Positions 28,341 to 63,996 are shown, counted from the whole stretch's first letter. The stretch: DNA of 63,996 nt, filler included, from Asterionella formosa (GCA_002256025.1; 14 parts of 14 records of this genome joined end to end with filler, not necessarily neighbours in it); one strand, 5' to 3'. Numbers and translations: made by a program. Notes: generated by a model from the letters alone, not told the origin.

Positions 28341-29427
28341 TTCAAATCGTTGCGAAATCTGCGATCTAATTGCGCACAGGTTAAGAATAGCTGAACGATT
28401 ATGAAACAGCCAGGTACGTCAGTGCTATGGAGTATCGGAAGTCTTGCCTGGGACGAGTAGGAGGTGTGAACGCCTCGAATTAATCCTGCTTCTGTCTGGA
28501 ATAATTCCGATAAACATTTGAAGGAAGAAATGTTGTACATTACATTTACACATAAATGCAACGTTCCAAGAGTACCATCATCATGTCCTTGTTTACAGAC
28601 AAATACATGTATTCATCAATGTAGAAAATAACGCGCCGTTTTGTAGCCCTGCTCGCGCAATCAACCGAACCAGCTACCATCAGTTGATGAACAAGGAATA
28701 CAGACTACCGGTACATATCGCGCTGGACTTTTGTCTCTACATAAATCCTAGGTATTCATTGGTAAGTTTTATAAAAAGAATGCATAGGACACTTAATTAA
28801 CCTAACGCCCGAATTTGATGTCATAGTACACGTTACCTGGTACCAGGTCCTACGAGTATCCTGGTACCTGGGCGCATAGAAGGTGAGGGCAACGGTACCT
28901 GGTAACAGGTTTTCCTATACCGGTAAGGTACCTGGTACTAGTACTGATACCAGGTACAAGGACCTACTAATGCTTGACAGATGGTGCGGTACAAGGTACC
29001 GGTATGCCCTGTGCTCTCTTACTGTCGGCCGTTGAACCTGCCTATTTACAGGACTGTATGCATACCGGTAAGTACCTGAGCGATACCCATTTTTCCAACC
29101 GCCCTCCCCCAACATCCAGATCAGTACACTAGTAAGTACAAGGTACTCCATTGTTGCACTTGTCAGTGGCGCCGGTAAGCAAACTCAAAGGGTATTGTAT
29201 TTATCTATTTCTTCCATTATAGTGCACACAAAGTCGATTATTAGATATACGGAGACATGTGCATTGCTTAGTTTTGAGGCATTTCAGAATTAATGAATAT
29301 GCACACTTCGCACCATCAGCACACCGATTATCCCAGTTATTTGAGAAATAAGACCAGCAGGTGTAGCAGTCCTCATCCTTGTTGCCTACATCTAGGCGCC
29401 CTGATCAAATATTAGGCTTTATTGGTA

Positions 29428-30392
29428 CCACCTAAAAACTGAGAGTCAGGATTTGAAAGATTTTGAACTGAGAGTCAACGTTAAATCGAGTAAATTCATG
29501 TTTTGGGCTAAATATGCTAGATACGAACATAATTATTCAAGCAATGTTGTAGTGATTCATGTACTACCGGTAAGTAATAATGATCGTCCTTTGAACTCGT
29601 CAATTAGCTAGCGTTATTTCCGTATCTGGTCCCAAAGGTTGCTGTCGACGAGAAATGAATTAAAGAAGCTAAATTAATTTATACTCCATTCAGCTGGCAT
29701 CACCATTTATATATGTATACAAGTATTTGAAAGTATTTCTGTCGGTAGATTCATGTAGTGTCCGAATAGATTCATTTGTTAGGGTAAAATATTTAACGAA
29801 GTCATTTTGCAAACTCCTCTACCTAAATGGAGAACATCATCTGCGACCTCTCGGCCAGACTACCTGAAAAACTACATACAAGGATTTGTCATGAAATCAC
29901 AAAAATCACCCGTGAAATGAATTGAAACAAGAGGAGGACCACCGGACAGATGAGAACTTGAAGTGATTGATATGCGAGGTCCGAACGAACACTTGACCAA
30001 TTTGCTACCAGTACTCGGCACTTTTAACCCTGGTACCTGGCACCTGTAGCTGGTACCAGGTACCGCTAATTATAGGATCAACAAAAGTAATAGAAAATAG
30101 TTTTTGTGGTAACAATCGAGTTAACAAAAAACGGTTTGGGGGTAAAAATCTTCATGTTTATATAAAAAAATATGTACTGAGAGTCAAAGTTTCGAGTCTA
30201 AATGGGTATGACTAAATGGCTTAGATCTTCATAACTGTATGTTCTACTTCAGAACTGATTAAATGATAGCTATCCCAGTTCTATCGACTACAATAAAGTT
30301 CGTACTTGGTTCGAATTTTATCATTTAAGAAACTTCGATAATTGTAGTCGAAAGAACGAGTACTGACATGTTGACTCTCAGTTTTTAGGTGG
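29428..30392. mobile_element. Non-autonomous TIR DNA transposon (965 nt), TA-flanked, related to the pogo-like element at 61328
   Basis: Perfect inverted repeat GGTACCACCTAAAAACTGAGAGTCA at 29424-29448 and 30372-30396 (reads as GG-TA-[CCACC...GGTGG]-TA-CC); internal ACTGAGAGTCA copies at ~29467 and ~30176; 29635-29725 aligns to 61531-61620. Confidence 0.85.
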
Positions 30393-31520: not shown

Positions 31521-31743
31521 TGCATTGCTTTTTCGACCCAGCCATCCAGCTGGTTGAACTCTACATAGTGGTGCTCTATCAAACTATCGTATGGTGGAAG
31601 GTTACGTAGGTGTATGTACCAGGTTCCTGGTATCAGGTAACATGTACCTCAACTGGTACCTGGTACCTGGTACTCCTACCTTGTACCTGGTACCGGGTAA
31701 CCACGGTAAGTGTTACTGGGTACCTGGTACTCCTACTCCAGTA

Positions 31744-31839
31744 CCAGCAACTTCCGGTAATTTTGCTGAAACTAAAGATTTAGCTACCTTTTTGCCAGAT
31801 GAAAATGTTAGTTTAAGCAAAATGACCGCAACGTGCTGG
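31744..31839. mobile_element. 96-nt MITE with CCAGCA...TGCTGG ends and TA target duplication
   Basis: Imperfect ~23-nt TIRs, TA at 31742-43 and 31840-41; second copy at 62796-62943. Confidence 0.8.
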
Positions 31840-32107
31840 TAAAAAGGCACGTGGTAGGTGGTACCCTGGTACCCAGAGCAAACGCTGGCCTGGCTGAAGC
31901 ATCACCCAATTCTTGTGATGACGATGATCCAATGGCATTGTTGTGGTTTGTTACAGACGAGAGTCGAAACACGAAAGTCTTGCTTTCCATCACTCATTTG
32001 GTGCCATAAACGTTGTCACGAAAGCCAAGTAATATTCTCCAGCTGCTCCATCCTCATTTTATGTAGTGCAACAGCAATAGCAATAGCAATAGCAACGCAA
32101 GACAATC

Positions 32108-33416: not shown

Positions 33417-35293
33417 CTAAAGTTCCATGGGGACAATAGAAGAAACCTGATCATTTCCCGCGCTTGTCATAGCAGCAGAGTATTGCGTTAAAAATGCCCC
33501 AAGGGTGGCTGCTGCCACTGGCAACTCCACCGAGTAGTCTGAAGAGTCCACGTTCGCATCATTGGAACGTTTGTTGGCCTCGTCCGCCGCAGCTGCTGCC
33601 AACGCCGTCACAGCATCAACATGCGTCTTGAATGCATCAGGATCGGCAGTGATGGCCACGAGACGCTCAACAAACAATTCCTGCATGGATGGAGGAAGAG
33701 ATGCCAAAGACTCGCTCAACTTCTTCACGAGTTCTGGGTCCGGAGAGACGTGATCAACAACGGTTGGCGCCTTCTTTGGTTTGGGCATGGAAGGTGTCAT
33801 GTCTGGGAGAACTGTAGGCTTCGAGATTTGATCCTCACCGAAATCATCCGAGAGATTGATTTCGTCTTGAAAAAGTTCCAACAAGTCCTGATCCAAGGAA
33901 TTCATGGATTCGAAGCGGTCCAAGCCCTTCAGAGGCAAAATACTACCAGGAAAGTACTCATCCTCCACTTTCACGATGGGGGAATTCGTTTCTTCTACGA
34001 AGAATTCAGCTTCAGTAGAAGGATCAGGAAGCGAGCTAGACCCAACGTGCAATGGAGCAATGGGAGCAACTGGCTGAATGGGAACCGACGAAGATGGGAT
34101 TACAACTGGCTCGATCTTTCGTTTCTTTGTACCAGGAACAGAGGAAATCTCTTGAGCTGCTTGTACTTTCAAGACAGTTTCCATCATTGACGACAAACGA
34201 CCCATTTCATCTTCTATCGATGCCAGTCTTGACTGGAGTACAGATACTTCATTCTTCAACACGTCTACTTCCACTTTATCTGCGGAGTCATGAGTATTCG
34301 CCTTCTTGATTTCCCCTAGTAAGTCTGGTCGTCCACGTAAAAACTTTTCGTGGCGAAAGCGCAGGTACTTGGAATCTTCACTGTAGGGAGAAGAAAGCTT
34401 AATTGGCTCCGACTTCACCTTGCGGAAACCGTAAAAATTAAGCTGACGAACGAAGGAACTGAGGTTGTTGTGCTTGTAAAATTGAGGAATAACATCACGA
34501 GCGAAAGTCTCAGGATCTTTAACGATGAATGTTCTGCCATCCTTGGACCTGAAGAAAAAGGAATACGGACGAGGCAAATAAATGGGTTAGCCATACGCGG
34601 TGTCAAACCAGGTGACACAAAAAAGAAGACTCCACGTCATATGCGATGCACTTTGCATAGAGAGAATCAGAGTGACGTCACAAGACTCAAGTCAAAGTGT
34701 CAAGCATGCTTTGAACCCGAACTTGTAAAAAGACTGGTGTTTTGGGCAATGGCCGCTCTCGTGCGCTTTTCTGAACTTACCATGTTGCGATTTCAGGACT
34801 GCAGCTATCAATCATGTGATAAGTCTTCTGCAAGGCGGAAGGAGAATACGAGAGTGAGTAAAAATGAAAAATGAATAAGGATTAGGGACCCGGACAAAGT
34901 ACCATGATTAACCACGCAAGTCAGGAAACGCCGCGTCGCGTCCATGGCTAGCCTTTCAAAGCATTGCACTCTACATCATGAGATCCTTCCTGAGCGATGG
35001 GGGATTAATCCACTTGAATTCATGGCCGCAGCAATACGGGTTGACAACAAAGGTTACCATGGTTCACAGTCATGCCACAATACAATTTTGTACCAGTTTC
35101 ACGTAGAAACGAACGACAGAGGCGCCAGACTTGCTTTACATCACACCGTTTGACTTACTCTTAGAAACAATGGAGCATTATCCTCAGTGACCTTCTGGAC
35201 AGGTCTTCCTTTCTTAATTCCCTTATTGATTGATGCATTTGATTGAACAGCGGAAGGAGTTTCGTTCATAAGGTCCATGGTGATGGATTGCAT
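33417..35293 (-). CDS. Heat shock transcription factor; 3 exons (35293-35159, 34827-34781, 34548-33417)
   Basis: Spliced DNA-binding domain [28 protein letters not shown]...[20 protein letters not shown]...FRHEKFLRG; both introns GTAAGT...CAG and frame-consistent; followed by a coiled coil. Confidence 0.93.
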
Positions 35294-35793
35294 TCCCGGT
35301 AGCTATTTGCTTTGCGTTTTGGCGCTCTCAAAAATTATAAGACATTGAATTTCCTGAATCATTGAGTCACAAATCAGTGGCTTTTGTGCGGAGAATTAGT
35401 TAGAACAAATTGGAACCCATTCATAAAAGTTAATTTTAACTTGGTAACATGTAGGTCATACTGACAGACAGGAGCTTTGGCAAGATTGCCACCAATTGAA
35501 TTTATGATATAAATAATGGTGAGTGGGTAGAGGAAGATTATGTTATGTAGGAATGCGACGTGGCATTTTTAGTGACGTGTAAATAGCACTTGTTGTCTGT
35601 ACATAAAATAATGTAGTGCATGTAATATCCAATTGCCGGTATAGATACAGGGGAGCGATACCCATATTTTGTGTTCGTATTTTAGCGGTAAATATAATGT
35701 TATCCTCCGTCCTCCCCCTTTGCACTGAGGAAGCACTCTCGTGCTGCTTGTTCTCAAATGCACCGAATCCATCGAATATCTCGTAATGTCGCA

Positions 35794-37542
35794 ATGCATC
35801 GATCCATAGGTGTGTCTTGCGCTCTGCTTGGTTCGGCGGCCGCCTTTTCTGGTGGGCCTAGAAATGTCTTGTTGGAGGAAACGCCCAACGACAAGAAAAC
35901 GGACCAAGTTCCCTTTGACCTTACCAAGGAGTGGAGTCGAAGCAATGGTTCAGAGTTTCTAAAGAATCTAATCGTTACAGATAAATGCAAACCCACGAAG
36001 GAACAAGAACCGGGCATGGTAAATCCACTGTTGGACTGGGTGGCCCAGAAACTAACTCCAGTTGATGATGAAGTTATTGATAGCAATAATGAAAGCTTTC
36101 TGTCGACTATCAAAGGTTTTACTTCATTATTGGTTGGAACGGGTAAGTAATGACTTGATGCTGTTCATCCATTGTGGCGTGCTAGTATCCCCGAAAGGAT
36201 AATCCCAACTCACCCAACGGCCTTAGACGAATCGAAGGGAGAAGCATTGCAAAATCTCATTCAACGAGCAAGGTCGGCCTCCAATGGTGACCAGCAAGGT
36301 GATATTCGAGATTCTCAGAGCTGGAATGAAATTTTGGCTGTCCTGCGACAGGATTTGGATGTTGTGAGTCAGTCACTTTCAGGACCGATGGGTCAAATCA
36401 ATTTGAGTCAGCTCTTTCCTACGAGCTTGTTTTATTATTTGGAAAAGCAAGACGAGCAAAAGAATCCAAGTTGGAAGCGACGAATGCATCGATTTTGTCC
36501 AGGTATTAATATTGATGAAGTCAATTACCTGAATGATGCCTTGTACCTTGCAGAATTGGCATATGAAACGACGGTGGACTCAATCAAGGCTGGTCTTGAC
36601 GATGCCAACGACCCCTTGGAGCTTGTCTATTGTACCATCGAAGGAGAATCATGCAGACCGGCACACTTTGTTGCACTCAAAAGGAACCAGTCTGTGTGGA
36701 GCTCGGCATTGGAAGTTGTCATGGTCGTTCGAGGTACGTCCTCTATAACGGACGCCATTACTGACGCCATGTGTAACCCTGTCGACTACCGCGGGGGAAA
36801 GGCACACGCCGGAATTCTGGAGAGTGGCAAGTACTTGGCAGTGACGCATGTGGAACTATTGGAGAATCTTCGACGAATGTCGGGAAAACGAAAGGTAAAA
36901 CTAACATTGGTGGGACATTCTCTTGGGGCTGGTGCGGCGGCTATTGCAGGCATGGAATTGAAAGCATGTCAAAGTAATTTTGATGTGAAAGTGATTGGCT
37001 TTGGATGTCCTGCCTTGTTGTCGGAAGACCTATCCAAGGCCGTATCAAGCTACATGACTACTGTTATTGGTGACTCTGACTTGGTACCTCGAATGAGTGG
37101 AGCTACTATTGGAAATTTATTGCTGGACATTCAAGAATACAACTATGTACCTAATGCGAGAAGGGACATTGAACAAGCATTCGATGAATTAGAATATGTC
37201 TCCCCAGGTATTCTTTCTAAAGGTTTCGTGGATGGACTCATGCATACTGTGGATTCTCTTTTTGAGAATATCGTCGATCCAACAATAAAGCCAGCAACAG
37301 TAGAACGGAGTGTGCCGGTTCTCTTTCCTCCTGGAAGGTGTGTGCATTTCTATCGCGATGGGTATGGCGTGACTGGGAGCGTAACACCATGTAAACTTTT
37401 CAGCGAAATTGACCTCAGTCGAAGAATGATTGACGACCACCTCATCACTCCTGGGTACCGGCAGATCTTCCTCGACTTGATGCGTCAATACCATAACGAC
37501 CAACATTTTTCTTTTAGTGAGGTCAGACCCGGAAAGAATTGA
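35794..37542 (+). CDS. Class 3 lipase, probably plastid-targeted; 2 exons (35794-36142, 36227-37542)
   Basis: VRGT, AHAGIL, VGHSLGAG, FGCP, DLVPR, DDH; GT-AG intron 36143-36226 in frame; signal peptide ending AAA-FSG. Confidence 0.92.
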
Positions 37543-37585
37543 GGCTACAGAGAATCAGTTTCAGTTAAGTAAAAAATAACTAGAG

Positions 37586-38872
37586 TTATGTAAAGGCAAC
37601 CGGTGTAGTACCTTCACTTTTTATGCGTGTCCTCTTGAAGACCATACTAGCTCTTGCCGCCTCGTCATTCTTATCATCAGCAGTTTTGACAGTGTGTTGA
37701 AACCTGATTTGGCAATCATTCAGCATTTCTGTCACATCACCCTCCATTACGACAAAGTTGTGAGGTTGTTGTTGTTGCTGCTGTTTTCTTTGGTGACGTG
37801 AAGTTGGTTGATGGATTGATTTATCGCTCTCTGAGGGAATATCACGAAATGCAAATTTTCTAGTAGCTCCCACACTCACCACCACAGTAGCATAATCCCA
37901 TAAAGTCCCTTGATCGGGATCACTATGATATCTCATCCCACTACCACCATCGGGATACAAATTCAATAGACAGCCATTATAATATTGCCCTGTCCGTGTT
38001 ACTAGACAATCTCGAACAGCTTGGACGAGGGGTGACCACGATCGAGTAGGCATGGACTTTCCAGAATAAGAAAATGGAAAAACACCTTCGTCACCTTCCC
38101 ATGCAGTTTTTCGACGCTCAGCAACAATTTCATTGGACATTGTTTTGATCTGATCCACGGAGAAGTCCACTTGATTTACCAAATTAGGTATGCTTAACTC
38201 TGGTACGTCATTCTTGAGACAAGCTGGAATAATTCGAAATGGAATCTTGAGGTCTTCATACCGCTTGTGCAACACTGTGGGAAGGGTTAATTCTTGCATG
38301 TGAAGTGCAAAAGTGTCATACGCCCACTTTATTCCAGTCAATTGATGAGATACTAGTTCGGTATGAATCTTCAATGCTTGCTCCTCCCAACTTGCCAGTA
38401 GAGGTGACCATAAACCTGAGGAAGACGTTTCGGGGAGTACACGTGAAATTATTGAAGCAGCCTTAAGTCCGTCCACGGCGGATTCCAGCTGCAAGGGGGT
38501 CCACGGGATAGTGATACCAGTGGGTTCCATCATCGAACGATTCGCCAGGACCGAGCATGTCTGTTTCCAAGCCTTTTCATTGTTGCTATTCCATGCTTCA
38601 CGTTTCCATTGTGATCCATCATGCTGCGCATAATGGTTTTGGTTGTCTAGGGAAATGATTTGTTTTGCCAATCGAACTAACACAAGAGACGCTATAGAGC
38701 CATCTGGATCCGTTTGTGGGGACAGTTCGCAAGCTACACGTTGCAATACATCTTGAGGTGAAAGGCACTGCTGCAATGCAAATTTGAGAGATTGTTGCTG
38801 TTGCGAGCTGCTGCTGAGCGCCTCTGCCGAGCTAACCAGAGAAGCTAGCACTGTGACAAAAGCGACTCTCAT
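37586..38872 (-). CDS. AlkB-family 2OG-Fe(II) dioxygenase with N-terminal presequence
   Basis: YNGCLLNLYPDG, YHSD (HxD), VSVGATRKF, FQH, RASMVFK. Confidence 0.88.
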   Translation of the reverse strand: MRVAFVTVLASLVSSAEALSSSSQQQQSLKFALQQCLSPQDVLQRVACELSPQTDPDGSIASLVLVRLAKQIISLDNQNHYAQHDGSQWKREAWNSNNEKAWKQTCSVLANRSMMEPTGITIPWTPLQLESAVDGLKAASIISRVLPETSSSGLWSPLLASWEEQALKIHTELVSHQLTGIKWAYDTFALHMQELTLPTVLHKRYEDLKIPFRIIPACLKNDVPELSIPNLVNQVDFSVDQIKTMSNEIVAERRKTAWEGDEGVFPFSYSGKSMPTRSWSPLVQAVRDCLVTRTGQYYNGCLLNLYPDGGSGMRYHSDPDQGTLWDYATVVVSVGATRKFAFRDIPSESDKSIHQPTSRHQRKQQQQQQPHNFVVMEGDVTEMLNDCQIRFQHTVKTADDKNDEAARASMVFKRTRIKSEGTTPVAFT

Positions 38873-39379
38873 CTTTGATCATTGGTCAAAGAGTGGGTTG
38901 TTGGTGGAATGATGTCGGTTATTGTTGAAGGGGACCAGGCAGTCTGTTATCAAAGTGCATACCAGTAGTACTGGTACCAGGTACCATATCATAATAAATC
39001 GAAAATATTAACACGTCTCGCTGAATCACGAGAGAAAGAACTTGCTTGCTTGCTGGTATTTCGGCATGGTGAGCTGTGCATACCGGAATATTACGGGACA
39101 CAAAGATGCTACCAGGTACCTGGTGCTGGCACTCCGAGTACTAGGTACGGCCAAGTACTACCAGTTGCTCTCATGTGCAGGACCAGTACGGTCCAATCCA
39201 GAGCAAATACCGGTATGCCTGAGAGATCTCCACATACCGGTTTGCCCAAGGTTCAAAGGTACCGGTAGATACATAATAGGCAGTATAGCTTGTTCCATAC
39301 ATAGACAGATCGAGGGATATGTATCATGACGAGATAAAAGTTGAGAGGGGTGGATAACTTCATTTATTTATTGAAATGC

Positions 39380-40930
39380 CTATCTCTCGCCATAATTGGA
39401 AGCAATACCACTGTCTCCAGACTTGGCAGCGTGCACTTGTGTTTCACCAAGAGCAACGTCAAGACCTTGGAATTCCCGTTGCTTCAAAAATTCTGCTGCT
39501 TTGGATTGATGAACAATTATCTGTCCCTTTCCAGGAAGTGCCTTCAAATCGATTTCTCCGTGCGTTTTCGTGTCCATGTATGTTCCGGTGGCTAATGAAA
39601 AGTACGGTGCATCAGCATCAGCATCAGCCTCATCATTATTGATCGTACTGGTACCATCCTGACTCATATATAGTCCCAGAAAGTCATTATAATCCAATGA
39701 ATATACCCCCCACTCTGTGTTCCCAAGTGCGATATGTAATTCAAGAGGTGTAATGACTGGAACATGTAGGTCGCGTTCGTCGTCCAAAAGAGAATTTTCA
39801 CCACAAGCAACAAGGACGTAACAATCAATCTCAGCGAAATTTGCAAGTTTGGCAGCATTTATTTTACCAACGGCGAATGTATACGATGCTTTTCCTGCAT
39901 CTTGAATGACTTGTCGTAACGAGGACACTACCGAGGTAAAATTCTGTTGAGACAAAGTTCCCACCAAAATACCAAAACAAGATGCGTCGCGAGCCTTTTG
40001 AGTCAAAAAGAATCTTCTTTGGAGTTTTCGCTGCAAACCTGATGGTAATGATGTTTCCATGGATTGATCCTTGGGAGAATACGACCAAAAGGAAGTTGGA
40101 CCATTCGGTAATGTTATGAAGCGGAGCATAGTGTTTACGTATTGTCGACTGGATGAAGCTGCATCAACAATGAACACCAAGGTGTATGTAGATAGGTCCA
40201 CAGTAGCAGGGACTTGCAGTCCTCCCACCAATATATAGTCCGGTACCAATACTTCGCCTTGTCGTTCCCGAGACCCATCGGCAAAACAACAAGGCTGGGG
40301 AATTTGCCCTTTTAATACCATCACATCTCCTCGTTCAATCAATTGCTCCTGCAATTTTTCCATGGCATGGTGATATCTGACTTCATACAACAAAATTATT
40401 TTTCTAACCTGCTTCTCCTTTGCTTCTTCTAAAACGGTCGCGACACAAGCATCCACATCCATGTCAGTAATACCAAAACTGTACAAAACTGGCAATTGTT
40501 GCGCTGGACTTAAACAGGCATGTCCATAATGGACCAACACATGAGCCGTTAAATGCAAGGCAGCTACTTCGTCCGGACAACAAGATCCGAATGTTGTGTC
40601 TCCTAGAACAAACACCAGCGACGGCTTCGAACTATTAAGCTGTCGAAGTGCCTCTTCCATGGCCCAGCAAACATCTGGAGCGTCGGACAATAAATGATCT
40701 GGAAATTGAAGTGCCACTCGACATGCCCAGCCATCTTCGTCATTGTTATTCGATGCGAGTTGGATGATCTGTTGGGAAATGCGATGGACTTCGTAGTACT
40801 CCTCGACAGATCGATGGCCTCGAGGGGAAACGGCTATTAGACCAGCATCGTATTCATTTGATGTGTTGATAATGCGCGAACCATCATCAAACATCAGCTG
40901 AGGTGGCGGTGTGTTTCGTTCTGATGACAT
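39380..40930 (-). CDS. DPH2: Diphthamide biosynthesis protein 2
   Basis: VALQFPD, LGDTTFGSCCPDEVAA, VHYGHACLS, GKINAAKLANF, VACGENS, PVITPLE, C-terminal SGIASNY. Confidence 0.93.
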   Translation of the reverse strand: MSSERNTPPPQLMFDDGSRIINTSNEYDAGLIAVSPRGHRSVEEYYEVHRISQQIIQLASNNNDEDGWACRVALQFPDHLLSDAPDVCWAMEEALRQLNSSKPSLVFVLGDTTFGSCCPDEVAALHLTAHVLVHYGHACLSPAQQLPVLYSFGITDMDVDACVATVLEEAKEKQVRKIILLYEVRYHHAMEKLQEQLIERGDVMVLKGQIPQPCCFADGSRERQGEVLVPDYILVGGLQVPATVDLSTYTLVFIVDAASSSRQYVNTMLRFITLPNGPTSFWSYSPKDQSMETSLPSGLQRKLQRRFFLTQKARDASCFGILVGTLSQQNFTSVVSSLRQVIQDAGKASYTFAVGKINAAKLANFAEIDCYVLVACGENSLLDDERDLHVPVITPLELHIALGNTEWGVYSLDYNDFLGLYMSQDGTSTINNDEADADADAPYFSLATGTYMDTKTHGEIDLKALPGKGQIIVHQSKAAEFLKQREFQGLDVALGETQVHAAKSGDSGIASNYGER

Positions 40931-41231
40931 GCGTGATGTTTGTGGATGACAAACGGGGAACCTGTTACGGTTTATAGGATAAAGGAGTTGGAATGTTCAT
41001 CAATTCCAGCTTGCTTATTTCATCAATTATACCGGTACCGATAGTCTTCTATCACAGAGCATTTATTGTGCCAGTGGTACCAGGTACCTTACCACAAATG
41101 GAAAATTAATTCTACCCCCACACCATTTTTAGCCGTAGTGGAAGCTAGTGCACTAGGTAATAGTTTACTAGAATGACGTACAAAGCATGTACTGGGATAT
41201 GGTGTAGATGATCATTTTTGGCTTGGTGGTA

Positions 41232-41553
41232 CCTGTTACCTGTTACCTGTTACCTGTTACCTGTTACCTGTTACCTGTTACCTGTTACCTGTTACCTGTT
41301 ACCTGTTACCTGTTACCTGTTACCTGTTCCCTGTTCCCTGTTCCCTGTTCCCTGGTCCCTGTTCCCTGTTCCCTGGTCCCTGGTCCCTGGTCCCTGGTCC
41401 CTGGTCCCTGGTCCCTGGTCCCTGGTCCCTGGTCCCTGGTCCCTGGTCCCTGGTCCCTGGTCCCTGGTCCCTGGTCCCTGGTCCCTGGTCCCTGGTCCCT
41501 GGTCCCTGGTCCCTGGTCCCTGGTACCTGGTACCTGGTACCTGGTACCAGGTA
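41232..41553 (+). repeat. 7-bp tandem array, 46 units, with ordered variants
   Basis: CCTGTTA x13, then 7 mixed CCTGTTC/CCTGGTC units, CCTGGTC x21, CCTGGTA x4, CCAGGTA x1. Confidence 0.97.
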
Positions 41554-49074: not shown

Positions 49075-50185
49075 TGAATGCTGCAACTCGATCGAAAATG
49101 GAAGTTCGTTCAAAAGCTACTTGGTCACTGCATTTTCCCGGTGCAATTACACCAAAATAAATAAATCTTGAGTCAGCATCACAAACAGCCTGGACATTGA
49201 TTCCATAAGTCATGTAGTGACCGGAAAAAAATGAACCAGGGTTGTTGCCACTTTCAACTATAGTCGGGCGGTTGATGGTGGCTAGGAAGCCGTCAATAGC
49301 ACCAACACATCCTCTCATCATGCCCTCTGAGCTTTTGCATTCAAAGCTGGAAGCCAATTTGATAAATTCTTCTTTTTCTTTTGGAAAAACAATTTCGAGT
49401 TCTCCACAGTTTAGTACAGCATCAATGAACAAATCACGACATCGATAAAGTGAAGCAATGCTACAACCGTAGGCATGACGAATGTCGATGTAACTGCCAC
49501 CAGCCAGCCATCGCAAACCAATGGCTACCACAATTTCGGGAATTATGGGCTCAGAAGTGCCACATTTGGAATAATTCCCTGCAATCTGAATTTCCAGCAT
49601 GGAGGTGAGTTTTTTGAATGCTCTGTGTGACATTCTGTATGTCTTCTCGAAAGCAATCTCGTGATTGAGTTTCTCGACATGTGATTGCCAGGAGATTCTT
49701 TCGTGGTGCCACTTGTGCCTTCGTTGTCGTCGTCGTTCAGATGACTGAAGCTGCCGTTTACAGCGTCGCCTTTGTCGTTTGGATGAGTGTTCTTTTTCCT
49801 CTGCTTCCTTAGCTAAATGACAGAGGAAGAAGAAATCAAGATCACTACTGTCATCGTCATTATCATCAAGTAAATCAAATGGCGACGACATGATTCATGC
49901 AAATGTGTGTTTTTAATATTATATTTAGTTTCCCGGTAATTATATTTTGTTGTTGCTTGATATCAAGACCATCATTATATTCCGGAGGGATATACACATG
50001 ATCTTCGCCAGCCAGTTGCCGTTGAAGATTCATTTTACTCCATGATACAATGTGATCACAAATTAGTGATACAGTGACACTTTTGGAATGAATGAAATTC
50101 AGTTCAAATCGAGTTACCGTTGCTGATACATTTTCAAAAAAATTCAAATTCCGTGATACACGAAAAAAAATGATAAGAACGACCC
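49075..50185 (-). mobile_element. PIF/Harbinger DNA transposon 5' part; transposase ORF 49891 to contig end
   Basis: YRMS..F..L, LRWLAGGSY, GCVGAIDG, NVQAVCD (HARBI1/DDE_Tnp_4-like); candidate terminus TTA|GGGTCGTTC at 50185 on the minus strand. Confidence 0.88.
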
Positions 50186-50579
50186 TAAGTTTGAAATCAA
50201 ATACGCTGCATACCGGTATTGATGTGGTATTCCTGTGTCGCTGTGGTTTCCTTGGCTGCTGTGTACCCTGGTACCAGGTACCTATCTTACCGGGACATAT
50301 GCATTATGATGGGAAAAAGCAGAGCACAAAAAGAATACTGGTATGTACGGTACATACAGTTTACAAAACTGAATCGTTGGCTGTGCTTGGCACTGCACAC
50401 CCATTTGAAGACAACACCATGAATATGGATTACCATACTGTACTTACTACGTATGTACTAGTACCTACCTGGTTGATGCNNNNNNNNNNNNNNNNNNNNN
50501 NNNNNNNNNNNNNNNNNNNNNNNTTAATTAATTAANNNNNNNNNNNNNNNNNNNNNNNNNNNNNNNNNNNNNNNNNNNN

Positions 50580-51996
50580 GTAATATTCCATCGTGTGGAT
50601 GCAAGAACAATTGTGATTCAAATGAAGACTGCCTGGATGTGTCAACTTTGTCAGCACCATTGTGTTCATTGTTTATCATCATTTCATTCCTCATTCCATT
50701 CAACTGGTCCTTAATTCCCTCTAGGTTTGATCCAACAACCTTCTGAATTAACTGAACCATTCGAGACTCCGACAATACACCTCCAAATGTCCGATCATCA
50801 AGCATTTTTTCGAATTCCTTTAGCAGTGATGGTCCAAGTGCCTGTAGTTCGCCTCTCATGCTCCTGATGGCTGCAAGATGGGCAACATGAGGAGGTATAC
50901 CTGTTAACTTCACAGCAAATGAGGATTCTTCCTCACATGAAAGATATCGAACAAAAATATGTTCATCAAGTGCCAAAAACTCCCTTGATGTGTAGATAGC
51001 AGTCTTACTCACTGCCGACTTGTCAGTACAAAGTTGTTGGAGATGTTTTCTGTGGTGCAGGATACATGCTACTAGTCCAACACGAAGAAATGGAAGCACC
51101 ATACTAACTTGCCAGTGAATCACATCACCAAACAGGGAACGTAAAGCCAGAATCACTTTTCCATCAAGCTCTGTTTGCTTTACTCGTGCATTTGCATCAT
51201 TGGGGTTTCGAATCCAAAAGTTTGGTTCTGAAACCGCAAAACAAGCAGATAGCACCACTGGCAATCCAGCCAATATTCGACCAACATGCATAGTGGTCAC
51301 CTGCCTTTTCATAAAGCATATAGACATCTCACACAGTGCCTAATGTCCAACCACCTCGATTGTTGATTGCTACACTTGATGGACTTGCTGTAGAGCCACT
51401 CGATGCATATGTTGTTGCACCCTTCCTGATGCTGTGAGTACCAATATCCTCCACCTCATATCCATCTAGATCGCCTTCATGTCCATGTAACAACCTCTTG
51501 ATAATTTTTCTGAATCGATCTTCCTGCTCTGCACCAGGAAACAATAGACCATCTGTATCTTGTAGAATTTTCCGGAAAGCATGTCATGTACTCAAACAAT
51601 GCAGTTATTGGGCACAATGCAAAATCTTCAGGGTTGGTGTAGCAGTGTCAGGGCTTGAAATTCTTGGAGCCATCTTGATCATTTTTTGTATGAGAAAATC
51701 GAATCCCCACAGCATCTTGACTCCAAACCAAATGCTTGATACAGACACCATCAGTACTACTATCAACACAGCACATCAAATTCCAAGTTAGACATAAAAA
51801 TGCACGTGCAAAAACAGCTGATGGAGAGCCATCTTCAATCAACCATATGCTTATTTTTCGGTACAGGTTGATTGTCAATTCACGTTTTCCTTCCTCAAGG
51901 CTACCCATCCCATCTTGTTTTGCCTTACTTGCAATTCGTTTGACGCCAGCAATGAGATCTTTCAGCTCATCATCAAAGTCGTCTGTAACCTTCATC
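50580..51996 (-). mobile_element. Crypton-like tyrosine recombinase transposon fragment, copy 1 (frameshifted)
   Basis: TWNLMC, HTKNDQ, LFPG, GTHSIRKGA (HxxR), RGGW...VY; stops and frameshifts; catalytic Arg codon changed to Cys. Confidence 0.85.
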
Positions 51997-52096
51997 NNNN
52001 NNNNNNNNNNNNNNNNNNNNNNNNNNNNNNNNNNNNNNNNTTAATTAATTAANNNNNNNNNNNNNNNNNNNNNNNNNNNNNNNNNNNNNNNNNNNN

Positions 52097-53499
52097 GGAG
52101 CTCATATGTGCTAAATTTGATGTGTCTTGATATGGTGACAAGGAAGGGCATACTGTTGACAAACATGATGTCACCTGCAAGTGTCACAACACGGTACTTG
52201 TCGATAATCCCGGCGGGGATGGTGGTAGAGCTGGTCCTCACTGGCACTGAACCACGGTGCACTGTTTTCCCTTTTAGCGAGCCCACATCGGGCCCGAAGA
52301 TTTGTTCTGCCGCTATAATGTCATCGCGTGTGATTGGGCAGTTTGGGAACAGGTTTTTCTCGACAATCTTGATGAATGTGCGGGTACTAGGACGCCCAAT
52401 AACCTTCTGTATCTTTCGGGCTAGCACAGCTTGTGAGTAGTCACGTTGGGAGTAGCTAGTACGGTTATCGTCTACCGTATTGATAAGGGTGACTCCAGAG
52501 CGATCCTTTGTATCCATGTAGTATAGGCCTTTCATTGATTCTTTGAACACTCTATAAGTTCCGTCATGTTTGTGAACATGGAATGCATTGCCCTGGCTGC
52601 TATCAAATGTTACCCTGTATCCATGCTCCTTGACACGTGCGAGGGACAGGATGTTCGCGATTCCCTTTGGGTTGTACCATACTGTTCCATATCCATGAAG
52701 GTCTCCTATGAGTTGGGTGCTGACTATACCAGCGTTGCAGTGGATATCCATCTTACTGGTGTGGACACGGATGTTGCGTAGGAGTTCCGCGTTATGGAAC
52801 ACATCAACTGTTGACTGATTGTCTAATAGTATCCATGTACGTGGTAGCCTTCCATCGGGCCCAATTTTCAGACTCACTCCTCCTTGATTTAGAAATTGGA
52901 AGTGTACATTTTCCTCGAATTCTCCCTCATGCACACCATCCATTAGTAGTGTGGTGGCGGACTGGGTCGATGTCGTTTCAGTTGTGGGAGGAGTACTGGT
53001 GGTCAAATTCCTAGGGACAGGTGCAGGCTCCTCACATTCCGTAGCGTAGTGCCCCTTCTTTTGGCATCGGTGGCACATGATGTGTGCCTTTCCTTTTGGC
53101 CTTTTCCGCGCGCCATTCTCGCTGTTGTTGTTCAGTGTCGTTCCATCTTCGTCATTCACATTGTGAAAGGATACGCCGTCACCAACTGCCCCTACTTCGC
53201 GTAGCCCATGCCGTGGATCCTGCTTCCAGTTTGTTAGTAGATGGTAGGCTGCACTGACGGTCTCGGGGTAGTTGTTTCGTCCTTGTAGGAAGTCGTTCTC
53301 CATATTTTCAACCAGACGGCCGTAGCGTACACGATCAGCTCCTACTAGGAATGCTACTGCTGTGAATCGCTCGAGTACCTCTGCCTTGAGTTCACTTAAC
53401 TGTTGATCATTCATGTTCTCCTTGCTAGTTGTCTTTTCATTCAGAATCATGTTCTCGATTCCTGAGTCGCCAGCAATGGTCCCTCCGCTGTGATCAATA
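52097..53499 (-). mobile_element. CoDi-like copia gag-protease-integrase N-part, copy 1 (open frame)
   Basis: LVENMENDF..G.NNYP, zinc knuckle CHRCQKKGHYATEC, protease WILLDNQST, ANILSL, CPITRDDI..A..IFGPD..SLKGKT, DIMFVN. Confidence 0.9.
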
Positions 53500-55001: not shown

Positions 55002-55101
55002 NNNNNNNNNNNNNNNNNNNNNNNNNNNNNNNNNNNNNNNNNNNNTTAATTAATTAANNNNNNNNNNNNNNNNNNNNNNNNNNNNNNNNNNNNNNNNNNN
55101 N

Positions 55102-56504
55102 GGAGCTCATATGTGCTAAATTTGATGTGTCTTGATATGGTGACAAGGAAGGGCATACTGTTGACAAACATGATGTCACCTGCAAGTGTCACAACACGGT
55201 ACTTGTCGATAATCCCGGCGGGGATGGTAGTAGAGCTGGTCCTCACTGGCACTGAACTACGGTTCACTGTTTTCCCTTTTAGCGAGCCCACATCGGGCCC
55301 GAAGATTTGTTCTGCCGCTATAATGTCATCGCGTGTGATTGGGCAGTTTGGGAAGAGGTTGTTCTCGACAATCTTGATGAATGTGCGGGTACTAGGATGC
55401 CCAATAATCTTCTGTATCTTTCGGGCTAGCACAGCTTGTGAGTAGTCACGTTGGGAGTAGCTAGTACGGTTATCGTCTACCATATTGATAAGGGTGACTC
55501 CAGAGCGATCCTTTGTATCCATGTAGTATAGGCCTTTCATTGATTCTTTGAACACTCTATAAGTTCCGTCAGGTTTGTGAACATGTAATGCATTGCCCTG
55601 GCTGCTATCAAATGTTACCCTGTATCCATGCTCCTTGACACGTGCGAGGGACAGGATGTTCGCGATTCCCTTTGGGTTGTACCATACTGTTCCATATCCA
55701 TGAAGGTCTCCTATGAGTTGGGTGCTGACTATACCAGCGTTGCAGTGGATATCCATCTTACTGGTGTGGACACGGATGTTGCGTAGGAGTTCCGCGTTAT
55801 GGAACACATCAACTGTTGACTGATTGTCTAATAGTATCCATGTACGTGGTAGCCTTCCATCGGGCCCAATTTTCAGACTCACTCCTCCTTGATTTAGAAA
55901 TTGGAAGTGTACATTTTCCTCGAATTCTCCCTCATGCACACCATCCATTAGTAGTGTGGTGGCGGACTGGGTTGATGTCGTTTCAGCTGTGGGAGGAGTA
56001 CTGGTGGTCAAATTCCTAGGGACAGGTGCAGGCTCCTCACATTCCGTAGCGTAGTGCCCCTTCTTTTGGCATCGGTGGCACATGATGTGTGCCTTTCCTT
56101 TTGGCCTTTTCCGCGCGCCATTCTCGCTGTTGTTGTTCAGTGTCGTTCCATCTTTGTCATTCACATTGTGAAAGGATACGCCGTCACCAACTGCCCCTAC
56201 TTCGTGTAGCCCATGCCGTGGATCCTGCTTCCAGTTTGTTAGTAGATGGTAGGCTGCACTGACGGTCTCGGGATAGTTGTTTCGTCCTTGTAGGAAGTCG
56301 TTCTCCATATTATCAACCAGACGGCCGTAGCGTACACGATCAGCTCCTACTAGGAATGCTACTGCTGTGAATCGCTTGAGTACCTCTGCCTTGAGTTCAC
56401 TTAACTGTTGATCATTCATGTTCTCCTTGCTAGTTGTCTTTTCATTCAGAATCATGTTCTCGATTCCTGAGTCGCCAGCAATGGTCCCTCCGCTGTGATC
56501 AATA
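55102..56504 (-). mobile_element. CoDi-like copia gag-protease-integrase N-part, copy 2
   Basis: Same length and breakpoints as 52097-53499, about 17 substitutions by eye; open frame. Confidence 0.9.
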
Positions 56505-56604
56505 NNNNNNNNNNNNNNNNNNNNNNNNNNNNNNNNNNNNNNNNNNNNTTAATTAATTAANNNNNNNNNNNNNNNNNNNNNNNNNNNNNNNNNNNNNNNN
56601 NNNN

Positions 56605-58007
56605 GTAATATTCCATCGTGTGGATGCAAGAACAATTGTGATTCAAATGAAGACTGCCTGGATGTGTCAACTTTGTCAGCACCATTGTGTTCATTGTTTA
56701 TCATCATTTCATTCCTCATTCCATTCAACTGTTCCTTAATTCCCTCTAGGTTTGATCCAACAACCTTCTGAATTAACTGAACCATTCGAGACTCCGACAA
56801 TACACCTCCAAATGTCCGATCATCAAGCATTTTTTCAAATTCCTTTAGCAGTGATGGTCCAAGTGCCTGTAGGTCGCCTCTCATGCTCCTGATGGCTTCA
56901 AGATAGGCAACATGAGGAGGTATACCTGTTAACTTCACAGCAAATGAGGATTCTTCCTCACATGAAAGATATCGAACAACAATACTATGTTCATCAAGTG
57001 CCAAAAACTCCCTTGATGTGTAGATAGCAGTCTTACTCACTGCCGACTTGTCAGTATGAAGTTGTTGGAGATGTTTTCTGTGGTGCAGGATACATGCTAG
57101 TCCAACACAAAGAAATGGAAGCACCATAACTTGCCGGTGAATCACATCACCAAACAGGGAACGTAAAGCCAGAATCACTTTTCCATCAAGCTCTGTTTGC
57201 TTTACTCGTGCATTTGCATCATTGGGGTTTCGAATCCAAAAGTTTGGTTCTGAAACCGCAAAACGAGCAGATAGCACTGGCAATCCAGCCAATATTCGAC
57301 CAACATAGTGGTCACCTGCCCTTTCATAAAGCATATAGACATCTCGCACAGTGCCTAATGTCCAACCACCTCGATTGTTGATTGCTACACTTGATGGACT
57401 TGCTGTAGAGCCACTCAATGCAAATGTTGTTGCACCCTTCCTGATGCTGTGAGTACCAATATCCTCCACCTCATATCCATCTAGATCGCCTTCATGTCCA
57501 TGTAACAACCTCTTGATAATTTTTCTGAATCAATCTTCCTGCTCTGGACCAGGAAACAATAGACCATCTGTATCTTGTAGAATTTCCGGAAAGCATGTCA
57601 TGTACTCAAACAATGCAGTTATTGGGCACAATGCAAAATCTTCAGGGCTGGTGTAGCAGTGTCGGGGCTTGAAATTCTTGGAGCCATCTTGATCATTTTT
57701 TGTATGAGAAAATCGAATCCCCACAGCATCTTGACTCCAAACCAAATGCTTGATACAGACACCATCAGTACTATCAACACGGCACATCAAATTCCAAGTT
57801 AGACATAAAAATGCACGTACAAAAACAGCTGATGGAGAGCCATCTTCAATCAACCATATGCTTATTTTTCGGTACAGGTCGATTGTCAATTCACGTTTTC
57901 CTTCCTCAAGGCTACCCATCCCATCTTGTTTTGCCTTACTTGCAATTCGTTTGACGCCAGCAATGAGATCTTTCAGCTCATCATCAAAGTCGTCTGTAAC
58001 CTTCATC
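56605..58007 (-). mobile_element. Crypton-like tyrosine recombinase transposon fragment, copy 2 (one premature stop)
   Basis: TWNLMCR, HTKND, PRHCY, CPITAL, GTHSIRKG, RGGW...RDVY in one frame, broken only by CGA>TGA at 57530-32. Confidence 0.88.
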
Positions 58008-58942
58008 NNNNNNNNNNNNNNNNNNNNNNNNNNNNNNNNNNNNNNNNNNNNTTAATTAATTAANNNNNNNNNNNNNNNNNNNNNNNNNNNNNNNNNNNNN
58101 NNNNNNNGGCACAGTGTGAATTGCAATCACGTTTTGTTGGTTTGCTGATCAATGCCAGTACAGACGAAGCATTTTGCTTCTTGGTGCTGAAAGGAAAATT
58201 CAGATTGCAACAAAAATATTTGGTTTTCAATCCAGTGTCGCAGGAAATTTCAGAGAAGGAACGATATTCGTCATTCTACTGATTTTGTCGACATTGGTGG
58301 GAAACCACTTATCAAAACAAGTGTGAGGGAAGAAAGTTCAGTTTCAAATGGTCTCACTGATCAATGGACTGATGATATTGATTTACTCGGTTATTATAAG
58401 GAAATCTACACTGGACTTTCACAAAAGAATCGATCTGAATATGGAAGTAATCCTAGTGGTTTTGCTACTTCCACAACAAATATCAGCTACCCACACTCAT
58501 ACTTCTCATTTCCCAATGTAAGTGAAGAGGATATGCATCAATATGTTGAACCACTTCAACCAAATGTTCCTGAGAAGAATATTGATTACAATGAAAGCAT
58601 TAATCAACGGGACATTGATGACAACGTTGATTTTGAATGGATCTAATAGAATCCAATGCATGCTTAGTTAGTACCGTAGTTACATAATAAAAATAGTTCT
58701 TGTAAGACTTCTACAATGCACAAACCATATCATAGATGTTAGGAAAACATTGATGTTACTCTATACTACTAGTAGTGGCGCCTGTACTGTATGTAGCGGT
58801 ATACCTCCATTTTTACTACTATGGTGGAGTGATAATTTCACAACTCTGTTTTGTCCAGCACAGCATGATCGGAGTGATGCTAAATTTATTATTAATAATT
58901 CATTTTCATGATATCCTGTTCATATCCTGAATTTGTCATCAT

Positions 58943-59506: not shown

Positions 59507-59610
59507 CGAGNNNNNNNNNNNNNNNNNNNNNNNNNNNNNNNNNNNNNNNNNNNNTTAATTAATTAANNNNNNNNNNNNNNNNNNNNNNNNNNNNNNNNNN
59601 NNNNNNNNNN

Positions 59611-61013
59611 TCAAAACCCTGGGGAAGGTTCATGTAAATAACAACATCAAGATCGGCTTGAGGAAAAGCTAAGACAAAATCAACCTGACGGGTATGGAGA
59701 TTTTCAATGGAAGCAATGATAAGAAGAAGGCGAACAGTGGCCCACTGGACAACAGGAGAATAGGTATCCCAGTAGTTCAATTCGAAAACTTGGCGATGGC
59801 CACCAGCACAGAGACGAGCTTTATGTTTGACAAGGGAGCCATCAGGGCGAATCTTTCGTTTCATGGACCAGACAGCGGGGATAGGGGTGTGGTGTTTTGG
59901 CATGGTGGAGCGAGGTACTTTAAGCCAATGACCACGAGCCTCATGTTCTCGGACTTCATGATCGGCTGCCCGTAAGAAATCAATAGCGTCGGGTTCAGCA
60001 AGAGCCTGGGTGAAGGTGAGAGACTCAGAGTTGGGAGTAGACACAAGGAAGGTAAAAGGGTGTAGAAAATTGATGGTACTGTCAAGATTATCGTAGAGAC
60101 GTTCAACAGAAGTAAGAGCAAGGGAGGCACAATTGAGTGGATAGGAAAGGAAAGCAGCCAGACCAAAGAAACGTCGAGTGGAAGTGTGTTCTTGTTGACG
60201 TAAAGAAGGGAGCCGGATGCGACCATAGCGAGAAGTAGAAGGAGGATCCACAGGAGGAGCAAAATGAGCTCCCTCGGAGGTGGTGATGGGAGCGCCAACA
60301 GTAGGAGGAGCAGGAGGAGCGGCGCCATCAAAAGGGGCGGGATGAGCTCCCTTGGGAGGGACGAGGAAAGCTCCCTCGGAAGCGGCGATTTGAGCATCAA
60401 CAGCAGGAGGAGCTGCTCCCTTGGGAGGGATGGTGATGGGATCCAAAAGGGGAGCAGGGGGATCGGCGGGGACCGCCAGAAAAGGTACCGGAAAAGGAGA
60501 TAATTGGGAAGGATTAGGTTTGGTAAGAAAATAGCGAGGACCAATATCGACAATAGGCTGCCATGCAATACGTTGTGTAGAGTCGAAGGTAGTAGAAGGG
60601 GGACCAAGTGTAGGGTCGAAGAGTTCATCGGGATCAACAAGACGGACATGACGTTGGGCGTAAAGGTCAGCCCAATGATTAGGGACTTCTTGACGGGTCA
60701 GCGATTCCACAAGAGAAAAATCGTCATCGAAAACGACGTGGAAAGGGGTAGTGACATGACCTGTAGCGAGATTAAGAACCAAAGGGACACTAGATGCATG
60801 GTACTTGGAACTCCCAAGGTATACACCCACCCAGCAGCGTTGTTCCCAGCGAGGTATACTATTGCCGGAGGAGTGCAGGCGATCATCGAGGACAACGACA
60901 GGGCAGCCAAATGGATGGTAGTGGGAAAATGAAGGCAACACATCAGAGAGTGAAAGGCGCTGGAGGTAGCACGGACCATCAGAACGTGGTTGAAGATTAC
61001 AGAGATCATTAGC
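59611..61013 (-). mobile_element. CoDi-like copia integrase C-terminus, Pro-rich linker and RT N-terminus
   Basis: HPFGCPV, GVYLG.S..HASSV, TGHV...FHVVFDDDF; RT WSMKRK, KARLCAGG, DTYSPVV.W, DFVLAFPQA; IN-before-RT order. Confidence 0.93.
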
Positions 61014-62515: not shown

Positions 62516-62795
62516 NNNNNNNNNNNNNNNNNNNNNNNNNNNNNNNNNNNNNNNNNNNNTTAATTAATTAANNNNNNNNNNNNNNNNNNNNNNNNNNNNN
62601 NNNNNNNNNNNNNNNTATCTTAATTAATAACGGTACCTGGTACCAGTAGTCTACCATGTACCTGGTAAATTGTATGTACATACCGGTTGGAGGGTAGGAG
62701 TACCAAGTACCAGGTACCAGGTACCAGGTACGAAGTACGAGGTACGTAGTCTACCCTTAAGTCTACTGGATGGTACCGGTACCATGTACCTGGTA

Positions 62796-62943
62796 CCTGT
62801 GCAAGTTGCGGTAATTTTGCCGAAACTAAAGATTTATCATACCGGTAGCTATGTAGTTTTATCCCAGATGAAATTGTTTGTTTACCGGTACCTGGTACCT
62901 GGTACCTGGTACCTGGTAAGCAAAATGACCGCAACTTGCTTGG
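62796..62943. mobile_element. Second copy of the 96-nt MITE, expanded by TA-anchored insertions, within a TACC(W)GG-rich cluster (62632-63066)
   Basis: Inverted repeat GCAAGTTGCGGTAATTTTGC (62801-20) / GCAAAATGACCGCAACTTGC (62920-39); TA flanks; aligns to 31744-31839. Confidence 0.82.
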
Positions 62944-63409
62944 TATGCATGCACTGTAGACAAATACAGGTAAATATGCTTCTTGTTCGCGTCGAGTGTC
63001 GAAGGGCCATGTCCCGGTATGTATGATACCAGTACCAGGTACCTGGTACCAGTAGTCTACCAGGTAGTGTGTCGTTCGTATGTATGAGGTGGTAAGAGAG
63101 ATGATGGTGAAGAAAGGTTTTAGAGTCAGGTTCCACAGTACGTATTTTGTACATTGTATACCTAGGGCGGTCGTTTTGAGAAAAGGTTCATGAAGGACAT
63201 TGTCAGTACATGCGAGATGTGTAGAAGTACCATCTTAAAGTTATGGATACAATAGACAATAGTCCAGCCAAATGTTTCGTCGTATAATATTGTATTACAT
63301 TTGTAGTGATTTGCAGTACGGGCCTGCCTACTGTTGTGAAGACTGAAACTGAAACTGAAACTGAAACCAAAACCGCATGCTAACTCTAGCATTCGTGCTC
63401 ACTCGTAAA

Positions 63410-63996
63410 ACGGTGGGTTATAGGGAGTATCGTGCTGCATTTTCTTGCAGTGTGCCGCATACCTTGCCGTAGTGAAAACTCGGCAGAAAGACCGCGTGGT
63501 TGCCTGTAGAGTCACAAGAACAACGGCGGTTGCAACAGCACAGCTGTCAGGTACACATAGTACATTGGCATGTAGCTCCTACGGGCAAGCGATGAAAGTA
63601 GTGATTCCAACTACTGTAATATACTCACTGCCTGATCAAGGACGGGGTCACACAAAACCTCGTGGGGAGTAATCCCCCTTTGTGTGATAGACTGGGACTA
63701 CCTCCAGGTTTAGGTCTATCGGGTACGAAGCAATATGGAGGGACTGCATCTATACGTACGTTGTGATGTGGGTAGCAGGAGTCGTACGGCGAATGCGATG
63801 CTGCAGGAGCATAATAAACCTGCACGGATCCATGCACCAACCGGGAGTAACGCACCCGGAGGGTACGGGAAGCTATTTTCCAGCAGCAATGGACCACCAG
63901 ACCCTTATGGAAGAGGCCTAGAGTAATCTAGATCCTGACTGGCTCTCTGTGTAGGGAACGAACCTATAACCCGGTTAGTTCCCGAGGGGATTGCCT
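63410..63996 (+). ncRNA. Candidate large structured RNA, probably a retrotransposon 5' leader
   Basis: Dense hairpins with GAAA, UACG, GUAA (x2) and GGAA tetraloops on the + strand; 3' part homologous to the leader of the gag at 54562. Confidence 0.6.

Follow-up and report, generated by a model that had tools for sequence, protein, structure and literature searches.

The intergenic DNA of the stretch analysed here, 63,996 nucleotides of the Asterionella formosa assembly GCA_002256025.1 with filler included (hereafter the window), is filled with short palindromes that carry TA at both ends, and the question it raises is what kind of process could have written such a repeat between its genes. 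A sequence-only reading of the window had proposed that these palindromes are stacked excision footprints of transposons that duplicate TA. Thus, we set the motif, the elements that lie amongst its copies and the contigs of public sequencing runs side by side, and ask how much of that proposal holds.

The window comes from the nuclear genome of a pennate diatom. Its long, intron-poor ORFs code for an S41 peptidase, a heat-shock factor, a class-3 lipase, a JmjC/cupin protein, a 2OG oxygenase and the diphthamide synthase DPH2, whose closest named relative is that of Fragilaria (54%); protein relatives with 71-73% DPH2 identity also exist. Two long pieces (1-22936 and 23037-45964) are followed, from 45965 onward, by a chain of ~1.5-kb contigs, and all pieces are joined by 13 linkers of the form N44-TTAATTAATTAA-N44, including the one at 22937-23036. 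Since these linkers are artificial, distances measured across them are meaningless, and the MITE copy and motif runs within 62616-63996, a separate contig of the ~1.5-kb type, have no fixed place relative to the other pieces. The ~1.5-kb pieces are mostly retrotransposon fragments, amongst them near-identical pieces of Copia-type LTR retrotransposons (zinc knuckle, RVT_2), none of which contains a motif unit. Further retroelement fragments (RVT_1, retroviral aspartyl protease) adjoin a linker at 21519-22934 on the minus strand, and a short telomere-like run (CCCTAA x 2.8, 18378-18394) was seen in an intergenic spacer.

Gene models are ORF calls made in this analysis. Contigs of four public runs (X1, X2, X6 and X7, from four studies, including freshwater metagenomes) were aligned to positions 26300-41210 of the window, and the depths given for them are summed contig depths, not copy numbers. 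The set used for comparison with other diatoms comprised ~191 kb around DPH2 from other diatom-like contigs (L001-L021); DPH2 identity was 28-52% amongst the metagenome relatives and at most 49% for the diatom-like loci.

Table 1. Elements, gains, motif runs and repeats of the window, with positions counted from its first nucleotide.
Feature	Position	Details
Non-autonomous element	29428..30392	965 bp (973 bp with TA and GG/CC); ends CCAC...GTGG; TA duplication
TACCGGTA inside the 965-bp element	29565..29572	absent from most other copies
MITE copy A	31744..31839	TA at 31742-31743 and 31840-31841; ends CCAG...CTGG
MITE copy B	62796..62943	TA at 62794-62795 and 62944-62945; on a separate small contig
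Second gain in MITE B	62837..62847	holds TACCGGTA; 11 nt (earlier alignment) or 15 nt (MAFFT)
34-nt gain in MITE B	62885..62918	CCGGTA and four CCTGGTA; directly behind TA; clean gap in copy A
Motif cluster	28834..29070	3 TACCGGTA and 4 TACCWGGTA; unique DNA upstream of an ion-transport gene
Degenerate 7-mer run	31616..31730	adjoins MITE A
Motif cluster	38965..39267	whole and half units, between the 2OG-oxygenase and DPH2 genes
46-unit 7-mer array	41232..41553	13 CCTGTTA, 6 CCTGTTC, 22 CCTGGTC, 4 CCTGGTA, 1 CCAGGTA
Motif runs	62632..62795	left of MITE B
Motif run	63027..63066	right of MITE B
Copia-type near-identical pairs	50480-52048 vs 56505-58059; 51997-52296 vs 55002-55301	97-100%
Copia-type near-identical pieces	52041-53450; 55046-56455; 59559-60941	97-100%

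The excess of the motif is large and specific. TACCGGTA occurs 38 times in the window, where 100 dinucleotide-preserving shuffles average 0.39 and never exceed 2, and TACCWGGTA occurs 33 times (shuffle mean 0.38, never more than 3); under an order-2 Markov model, TACCGGTA tops the over-represented 8-mers of the window (38 vs 0.67). Every position at which the sequence-only reading had placed the motif does carry it, and the enrichment of TA-N(1-6)-TA words that it had suggested as a check, run here on the window, singled out TACCGGTA and TACCWGGTA alone, besides words derived from these repeats or from the linker. TA stands on both sides of 38 of the 139 CCGG, no base is preferred outside the 8-mer, and all information lies within the perfect palindrome. 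The middle base of the 35 one-base-spaced units is W in 33 and S in 2 (TACCSGGTA, n=2), and the W form is found mostly in a GGTACC context (GGTACCWGGTACC, 15 times). Single units with unrelated flanks in unique DNA make up 35 of the 37 TACCGGTA loci.

These units are mostly intergenic, as had been claimed: ATG-ORFs of at least 150 aa span 33,186 of the 62,439 non-N bases (53%) and contain 3 of the 71 units, all three of them amongst the 38 TACCGGTA and none amongst the 33 TACCWGGTA. One of the three, at 11794, falls in a serine-rich N-terminus, at which a 99% relative is equal in length and relatives of 50-53% do not align. As a separate observation, a 426-nt stretch at 20832-21261 lies between inverted copies of TACCGGTA and adjoining AT-rich bases (12 of 14 after the TA), and may be a chance arrangement or a small element.

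Two element families lie amongst the units (Table 1). Both end in CCA...TGG, as had been noted from the sequence, and both now stand on inverted repeats and high depth. The 965-bp element has no coding capacity, is bounded by a perfect 25-nt inverted repeat (29424-29448 and 30372-30396) and is inserted in a lone GG-TA-CC within AT-rich DNA, the same GGTACC in which it had been placed before. Its flanks show no duplication longer than TA, which rules it out as a piggyBac (TTAA) element or one of a longer-duplication type. Of the MITE the window holds two copies, A with a 34-nt inverted repeat (85%, TA included) and B with a 20-nt one (95%; 62801-62820 and 62920-62939). Both families are high-copy: summed depth in X1 was ~130,000 over the 965-bp element and 138,000-236,000 over the MITE region, against ~800 in the flanks (50-290x the flanks), three other runs gave similar contrasts, and each of the four runs contributed dozens of contigs. 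Amongst these, 45 X1 contigs carry the family base at 29588 of the 965-bp element, and loose contig ends at 31741, 31836 and 31841 of MITE A number 15-42 contigs per run.

With a TA duplication, terminal inverted repeats and many dispersed copies, these elements have the marks of non-autonomous Tc1/mariner-type elements (Stowaway-like MITEs). A Pfam scan of 53 ORFs of the window (14 + 39) found no Tc1/mariner/pogo transposase, and the only DDE match in the window is a PIF/Harbinger-type DDE_Tnp_4 fragment (49076-49894, minus strand, E 4.6e-9) on a small contig; one TACCGGTA and one TACCAGGTA stand 320-390 nt upstream of that fragment. Beyond the motif runs and an inverted gene duplication, a scan of the window for TA-flanked inverted repeats returned the 965-bp element only, and viral contigs gave no match to the MITE core or to a run of three units.

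The tie between the motif and the transposon ends is the firm new result of this analysis. The termini read TA-CCAG...CTGG-TA in MITE A and TA-CCAC...GTGG-TA in the 965-bp element, and the inner CC(A)/(T)GG that the units hold between two TA corresponds to these terminal CCA...TGG bases; TA together with the MITE end (TACCAG) supplies six of the seven bases of the 7-mer unit TACCAGG. In the window, motif runs abut the MITE ends or lie 0-90 nt from them. The public contigs extend this pattern, in three or four of the runs, to other MITE copies, which are typically flanked on both sides by GGTACCWGG. Before 31741, the unaligned flanks yield consensuses that close with GTACCAGGTACCAG (37 X1 contigs) and, in similar form, with GTACCGGGTACCAG (20 X2 contigs). 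Behind 31841, the flank consensus of 42 X1, 30 X6 and 31 X7 contigs starts with CCAGG and passes into a run that resembles the motif, with X7 the cleanest and X6 degenerate. The agreement of these flank consensuses is just 0.4-0.46 overall, as expected for different loci, and the part that adjoins the element spells the motif; therefore, most MITE copies lie in or against the repeat. The GG-TA-CC site of the 965-bp element fits the preference for motif sites that the MITE flanks show. The elements may write the motif, or may be drawn to one that stood there before.

Motif units can also appear as small insertions where they were absent before. Three TACCGGTA lie inside element copies (29565, 62840 and 62883), and all three are missing from sister copies. 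The two MITE copies align in the way that had been described, and of the two TA-anchored gains that had been reported for copy B, the longer stands as a clean 34-nt gain behind TA; the other changes length with the alignment (Table 1) and its anchoring is ambiguous. At the third site, 24 X1 contigs break at 29576 and their shared consensus (agreement 0.79) is 6 nt shorter, such that the difference at 29565 calls for CCGGTA with two substitutions or else for the loss of 1 nt and the gain of 7. A clean single-event gain is thus seen in one of the three cases, and two (62837-62847 and 29565) need more than one event. A binding site that arose by point mutation would leave a different picture from these gains within elements. 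An origin of the palindrome from a hairpin (P-nucleotides) is out, since the clean gain at 62885 follows TTTA, not TACC.

Amongst the 12 best-supported of 135 indels in the aligned run contigs, none lay inside the MITE, despite the highest depth there, none was a presence/absence allele of TA against TACCGGTA, and none revealed one site in its empty, filled and scarred states. Net length differences of 7 nt were seen within 33850-36967 (X6) and within 31803-33232 (X7) and are left out of the argument here.

The tandem runs call for a different account. They had been put down to stacked footprints, with slippage as a possible partial cause, and here stacking proves not to be needed. The 46-unit array is built of blocks, in the order 13 CCTGTTA, 4 CCTGTTC, 1 CCTGGTC, 2 CCTGTTC, 21 CCTGGTC, 4 CCTGGTA and 1 CCAGGTA, and 28 of its 46 units lack TA. 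Such blocks are made only by slippage or unequal exchange, and with so many units devoid of TA we conclude that the runs grow by slippage, not by stacking. Amongst neighbouring W units of the shorter runs, 8 of 10 share their letter. Head-to-tail units in homogeneous blocks are what defines a slippage microsatellite, a description that fits the runs and within whose scope the 35 single TACCGGTA loci do not fall. A separate small repeat lies at 41122-41156; the depth of its bin is ~8x that of the flanks, and the loose ends of the 13 X1 contigs that break at 41122 are all the same (agreement 1.0).

The reading that we tentatively favour, plausible if still somewhat short of probable, is that TA-targeting elements prefer GG-TA-CC, that their excision seeds units and that slippage expands them. 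The units would be a by-product of a cut-and-paste transposon family that duplicates TA and ends in CCA...TGG, the transposase of which would prefer a TA between GG and CC, a site that resembles two abutted element ends. Upon excision, end-joining would keep two bases of each end, with or without a mismatched third, and the outcome would be TA-CCGG-TA or TA-CC(A/T)GG-TA. Each scar would then offer fresh GG-TA and TA-CC half-sites, leading to self-reinforcing hot spots that would lie mostly in open promoter DNA, whilst slippage would extend any run of at least two units, and some scars may later become protein-binding sites.

The interpretation of the units as footprints is partly supported. 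Excision of Tc1/mariner elements leaves two non-complementary 3-nt overhangs, and their joining gives an ambiguous middle base. The units resemble footprints of the IS630-Tc1-mariner group in this ambiguous middle base, in having TA on both sides and in inner bases that equal the end bases of a resident element; for Tc1 in C. elegans, taCATGta has been cited as a footprint, though a rare one (PMC3520976). The sequence-only reading had gone further and taken CC+GG, CCA+GG and CC+TGG to be exactly the footprints expected; the W in 33 of the 35 spaced units and the match to the element ends bear this out, and the frequency of the single-end forms does not. TACCATA/TATGGTA is at chance level (12 vs 11.9 expected), TACCTA/TAGGTA is not enriched (21 vs 27.4), and TACCATGGTA, in which both whole ends are kept, is rare in absolute terms (2 vs 0.16). 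Only forms that keep both ends are therefore enriched in the window, and single-end and trimmed forms do not feature in its spectrum. Known footprints are, moreover, rare, scattered and heterogeneous, whereas here two to three stereotyped forms recur about once per kb, with no enrichment of single ends and no donor-site pair seen. In natural comparisons of rice, just 8 excisions out of 94 were perfect, and deletions or filler marked most of them (PMC4423477). In addition, to leave ~100,000 scars per genome, excision would have to be extremely frequent, which counts against the units being scars.

The most serious alternative is that TACCGGTA and its one-base-spaced form are an old stramenopile binding site of a dimeric transcription factor, greatly multiplied in the promoters of this lineage, with elements that target the site or open chromatin and 7-mer runs that are microsatellites seeded from the site. 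We regard this as possible, though on the whole unlikely. In its favour, the identical palindrome has been predicted in oomycetes. As given in passages of the respective papers, TACCGGTA is M94, one of five palindromes amongst 103 Phytophthora infestans promoter motifs and listed as 'high-confidence' by Roy, Kagda and Judelson (PMC3597505). Its counterparts are motif-9 of Seidl et al. (PMC3520976), an inverted repeat that stands upstream of 1,284 genes, survived a conservation filter and shows three-fold enrichment at RXLR effector genes, and, in Plasmopara halstedii, streme-5 (PMC10031896). The likeness extends beyond the 8-mer that M94 and motif-9 share with the window, to an intergenic or promoter-side position, palindromy, abundance and stramenopile hosts.

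Those oomycete motifs are nevertheless predictions, made, so far as these passages state, from over-representation, palindromy and a conservation filter (PMC3597505, PMC3520976), and it is there that they are read as sites of homodimeric factors. The sister palindrome of oomycetes, M93/motif-1 (TACATGTA), is not enriched in the window (1 vs 2.1), and the same passages do not describe the W-spaced form, the 7-mer runs or a tie to transposon ends. For TACATGTA, a Tc1-footprint origin was considered and dismissed over abundance and conservation, according to a passage of Seidl et al. 2012 (PMC3520976). Our own literature search gave no diatom paper on the TACCGGTA motif among the matches listed, and one for MITEs or mariner-like elements of diatoms yielded nothing of use. 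We know of no protein that binds the TACCGGTA palindrome.

Position within the spacers bears on the same question. Spacers at gene 5' ends hold 39 units in 12,160 nt, against 2 in 2,479 nt of convergent spacers (p 0.02, uncorrected for the clustering of units and based on our own ORF calls), and 18 of the 21 units in tandem spacers lie nearer the 5' gene. Although such a promoter-side bias is what a binding site would show, it fits both readings, because DNA transposons also favour promoters. The divergent promoter at 34578-36171, 1.6 kb in length, has no unit at all, which counts against a binding site. Three paralogous genes of unassigned family (16112-17122, minus; 18732-19427, plus; 19914-20759, minus; two of them in inverted orientation) have promoters that lose alignment within ~60 nt of the start codon, and no motif indels could be read from them; the region of the third also contains a 54-nt coding repeat (20089-20229).

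Outside this lineage, both motif forms are present at far lower counts. In the ~191 kb of other diatoms, TACCGGTA was found 5 times (1.18 expected) and TACCWGGTA 8 times (1.04 expected), with all 8 W units contributed by L001 and L004, apparently two samples of a single organism. L001, whose DPH2 is 46% identical, holds 5 units against ~0.36 expected, all of them intergenic and with the two forms 8 nt apart in one place, as a binding site would predict; no element was seen beside them, which counts against an origin as scars. The cluster concerned, at 14363-14655 of L001, contains GGTACCCTGG twice, TACCAGGTA, and TACCTGGTA 8 nt from TACCGGTA. Single TACCAGGTA at 1336 and 5362 stand in two other L001 promoters, one of which is the DPH2 promoter, where the window has one TACCAGGTA as well, and L015 carries TACCGGTACCTGG. 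The two forms, then, travel together in more than one lineage, and the 50-fold excess is special to this one, the other diatoms coming nowhere near it, a restriction that speaks for the excision reading and against a binding site.

Sequence change within units gives a mixed answer. For one-off variants of TACCGGTA, the count is 57 where 17.4 would be expected, with the CpG-transition variant alone at 20 against 2.95, and an excess of ~40 variants beside 38 intact copies is near the ratio of steady neutral decay; so many decayed copies speak against a binding site, although a degenerate binding site could give the same excess. The unit at 28706 persists in a haplotype with 4 differences no more than 7 nt away from it, in favour of a binding site, and the unit at 28918 is lost from the other haplotype through 28923 G>A, against it. 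The motif-rich spacer at 28669-29117 has a strongly diverged allele in X2, X6 and X7: an X2 contig over it has 41 other letters and 27 gap letters in 449 nt, whilst the neighbouring genes differ by well below 1%, and, apart from the substitution at 28923 that breaks a TACCGGTA, 28900 T>A flips the W of one unit. The confinement of all information to the palindrome is again what a bound site would give. What this explanation does not account for is the insertion of units into transposon copies, the W spacer in 33 of 35 units and the identity of element ends with the motif core. The protein-binding site under positional selection, which the sequence-only reading had itself named as a refutation, keeps its weight through the oomycete prediction and the promoter-side bias.

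A further alternative dispenses with excision altogether, and we find it distinctly improbable. Units would come from an element end and its TA (TA-CCAG), slippage, unequal exchange or filler synthesis at junctions would make them into runs, the transposase would target end-like sequence, and isolated units would be decayed or shortened runs. The six of seven bases that TACCAGG shares with TA and the MITE end, the runs that abut MITE ends or lie within 0-90 nt of them and the slippage evident in the array all agree with this, as does the filler DNA described at rice excision sites in a passage of PMC4423477. The 34-nt gain of MITE B shows 97% complementarity with a run that lies 156 nt upstream of it, as copying of filler would give, but complementarity between two runs of near-palindromic 7-mers is trivial. 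Set against it are the 35 of 37 TACCGGTA loci that are single, in unique DNA and with random flanks, and the 6-nt unit without W, which is not found in any element end.

An artefact of assembly, vector or adaptor, which small contigs with artificial linkers in part of the window and the KpnI and AgeI sites within the units might have suggested, is refuted to the point of near impossibility by motif clusters between real genes in long contigs and by repeats and both elements in contigs of four independent runs from four studies, including freshwater metagenomes.

Two other known systems share features with the repeat. Like Stowaway-like MITEs, the elements have a TA duplication, short inverted repeats, a high copy number and positions near genes, and, like transposon-associated microsatellites, the tandem runs grow by slippage; unlike in the latter, the unit here consists of TA and an element end, element copies sit inside the runs and most TACCGGTA are single. 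HIP1 of cyanobacteria is common inside genes as well. It too is a palindromic 8-mer that occurs about once per kb, in a prokaryotic host and with no link to transposons stated in the passage concerned (PMC4390886).

A wider proposal would follow from the excision reading set out above, and we offer it as doubtful: that TA-flanked promoter palindromes of stramenopiles (TACCGGTA in this diatom and in oomycetes, with TACATGTA of Phytophthora as an extension) are scars of TA-targeting transposons, that a cycle of insertion and excision at sites such as GG-TA-CC writes a genome-wide repeat, and that some of the scars may be co-opted as regulatory sites. If true, a scar origin would explain why such motifs cluster at genes in transposon-rich compartments, for example RXLR effector genes, and would change how over-represented promoter palindromes in diatoms and oomycetes are read. 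Should excision indeed write the units, a mobile element would be creating a genome-wide motif, at about one per kb, by its scars and not by its own copies; it would make its own landing sites, and the units would be a natural record of excision activity. If the motif is instead a binding site, it would represent an extreme multiplication through nearly all promoters, with a transposon family homing to the site. Under either reading, the tie between the motif and the element ends is real and testable.
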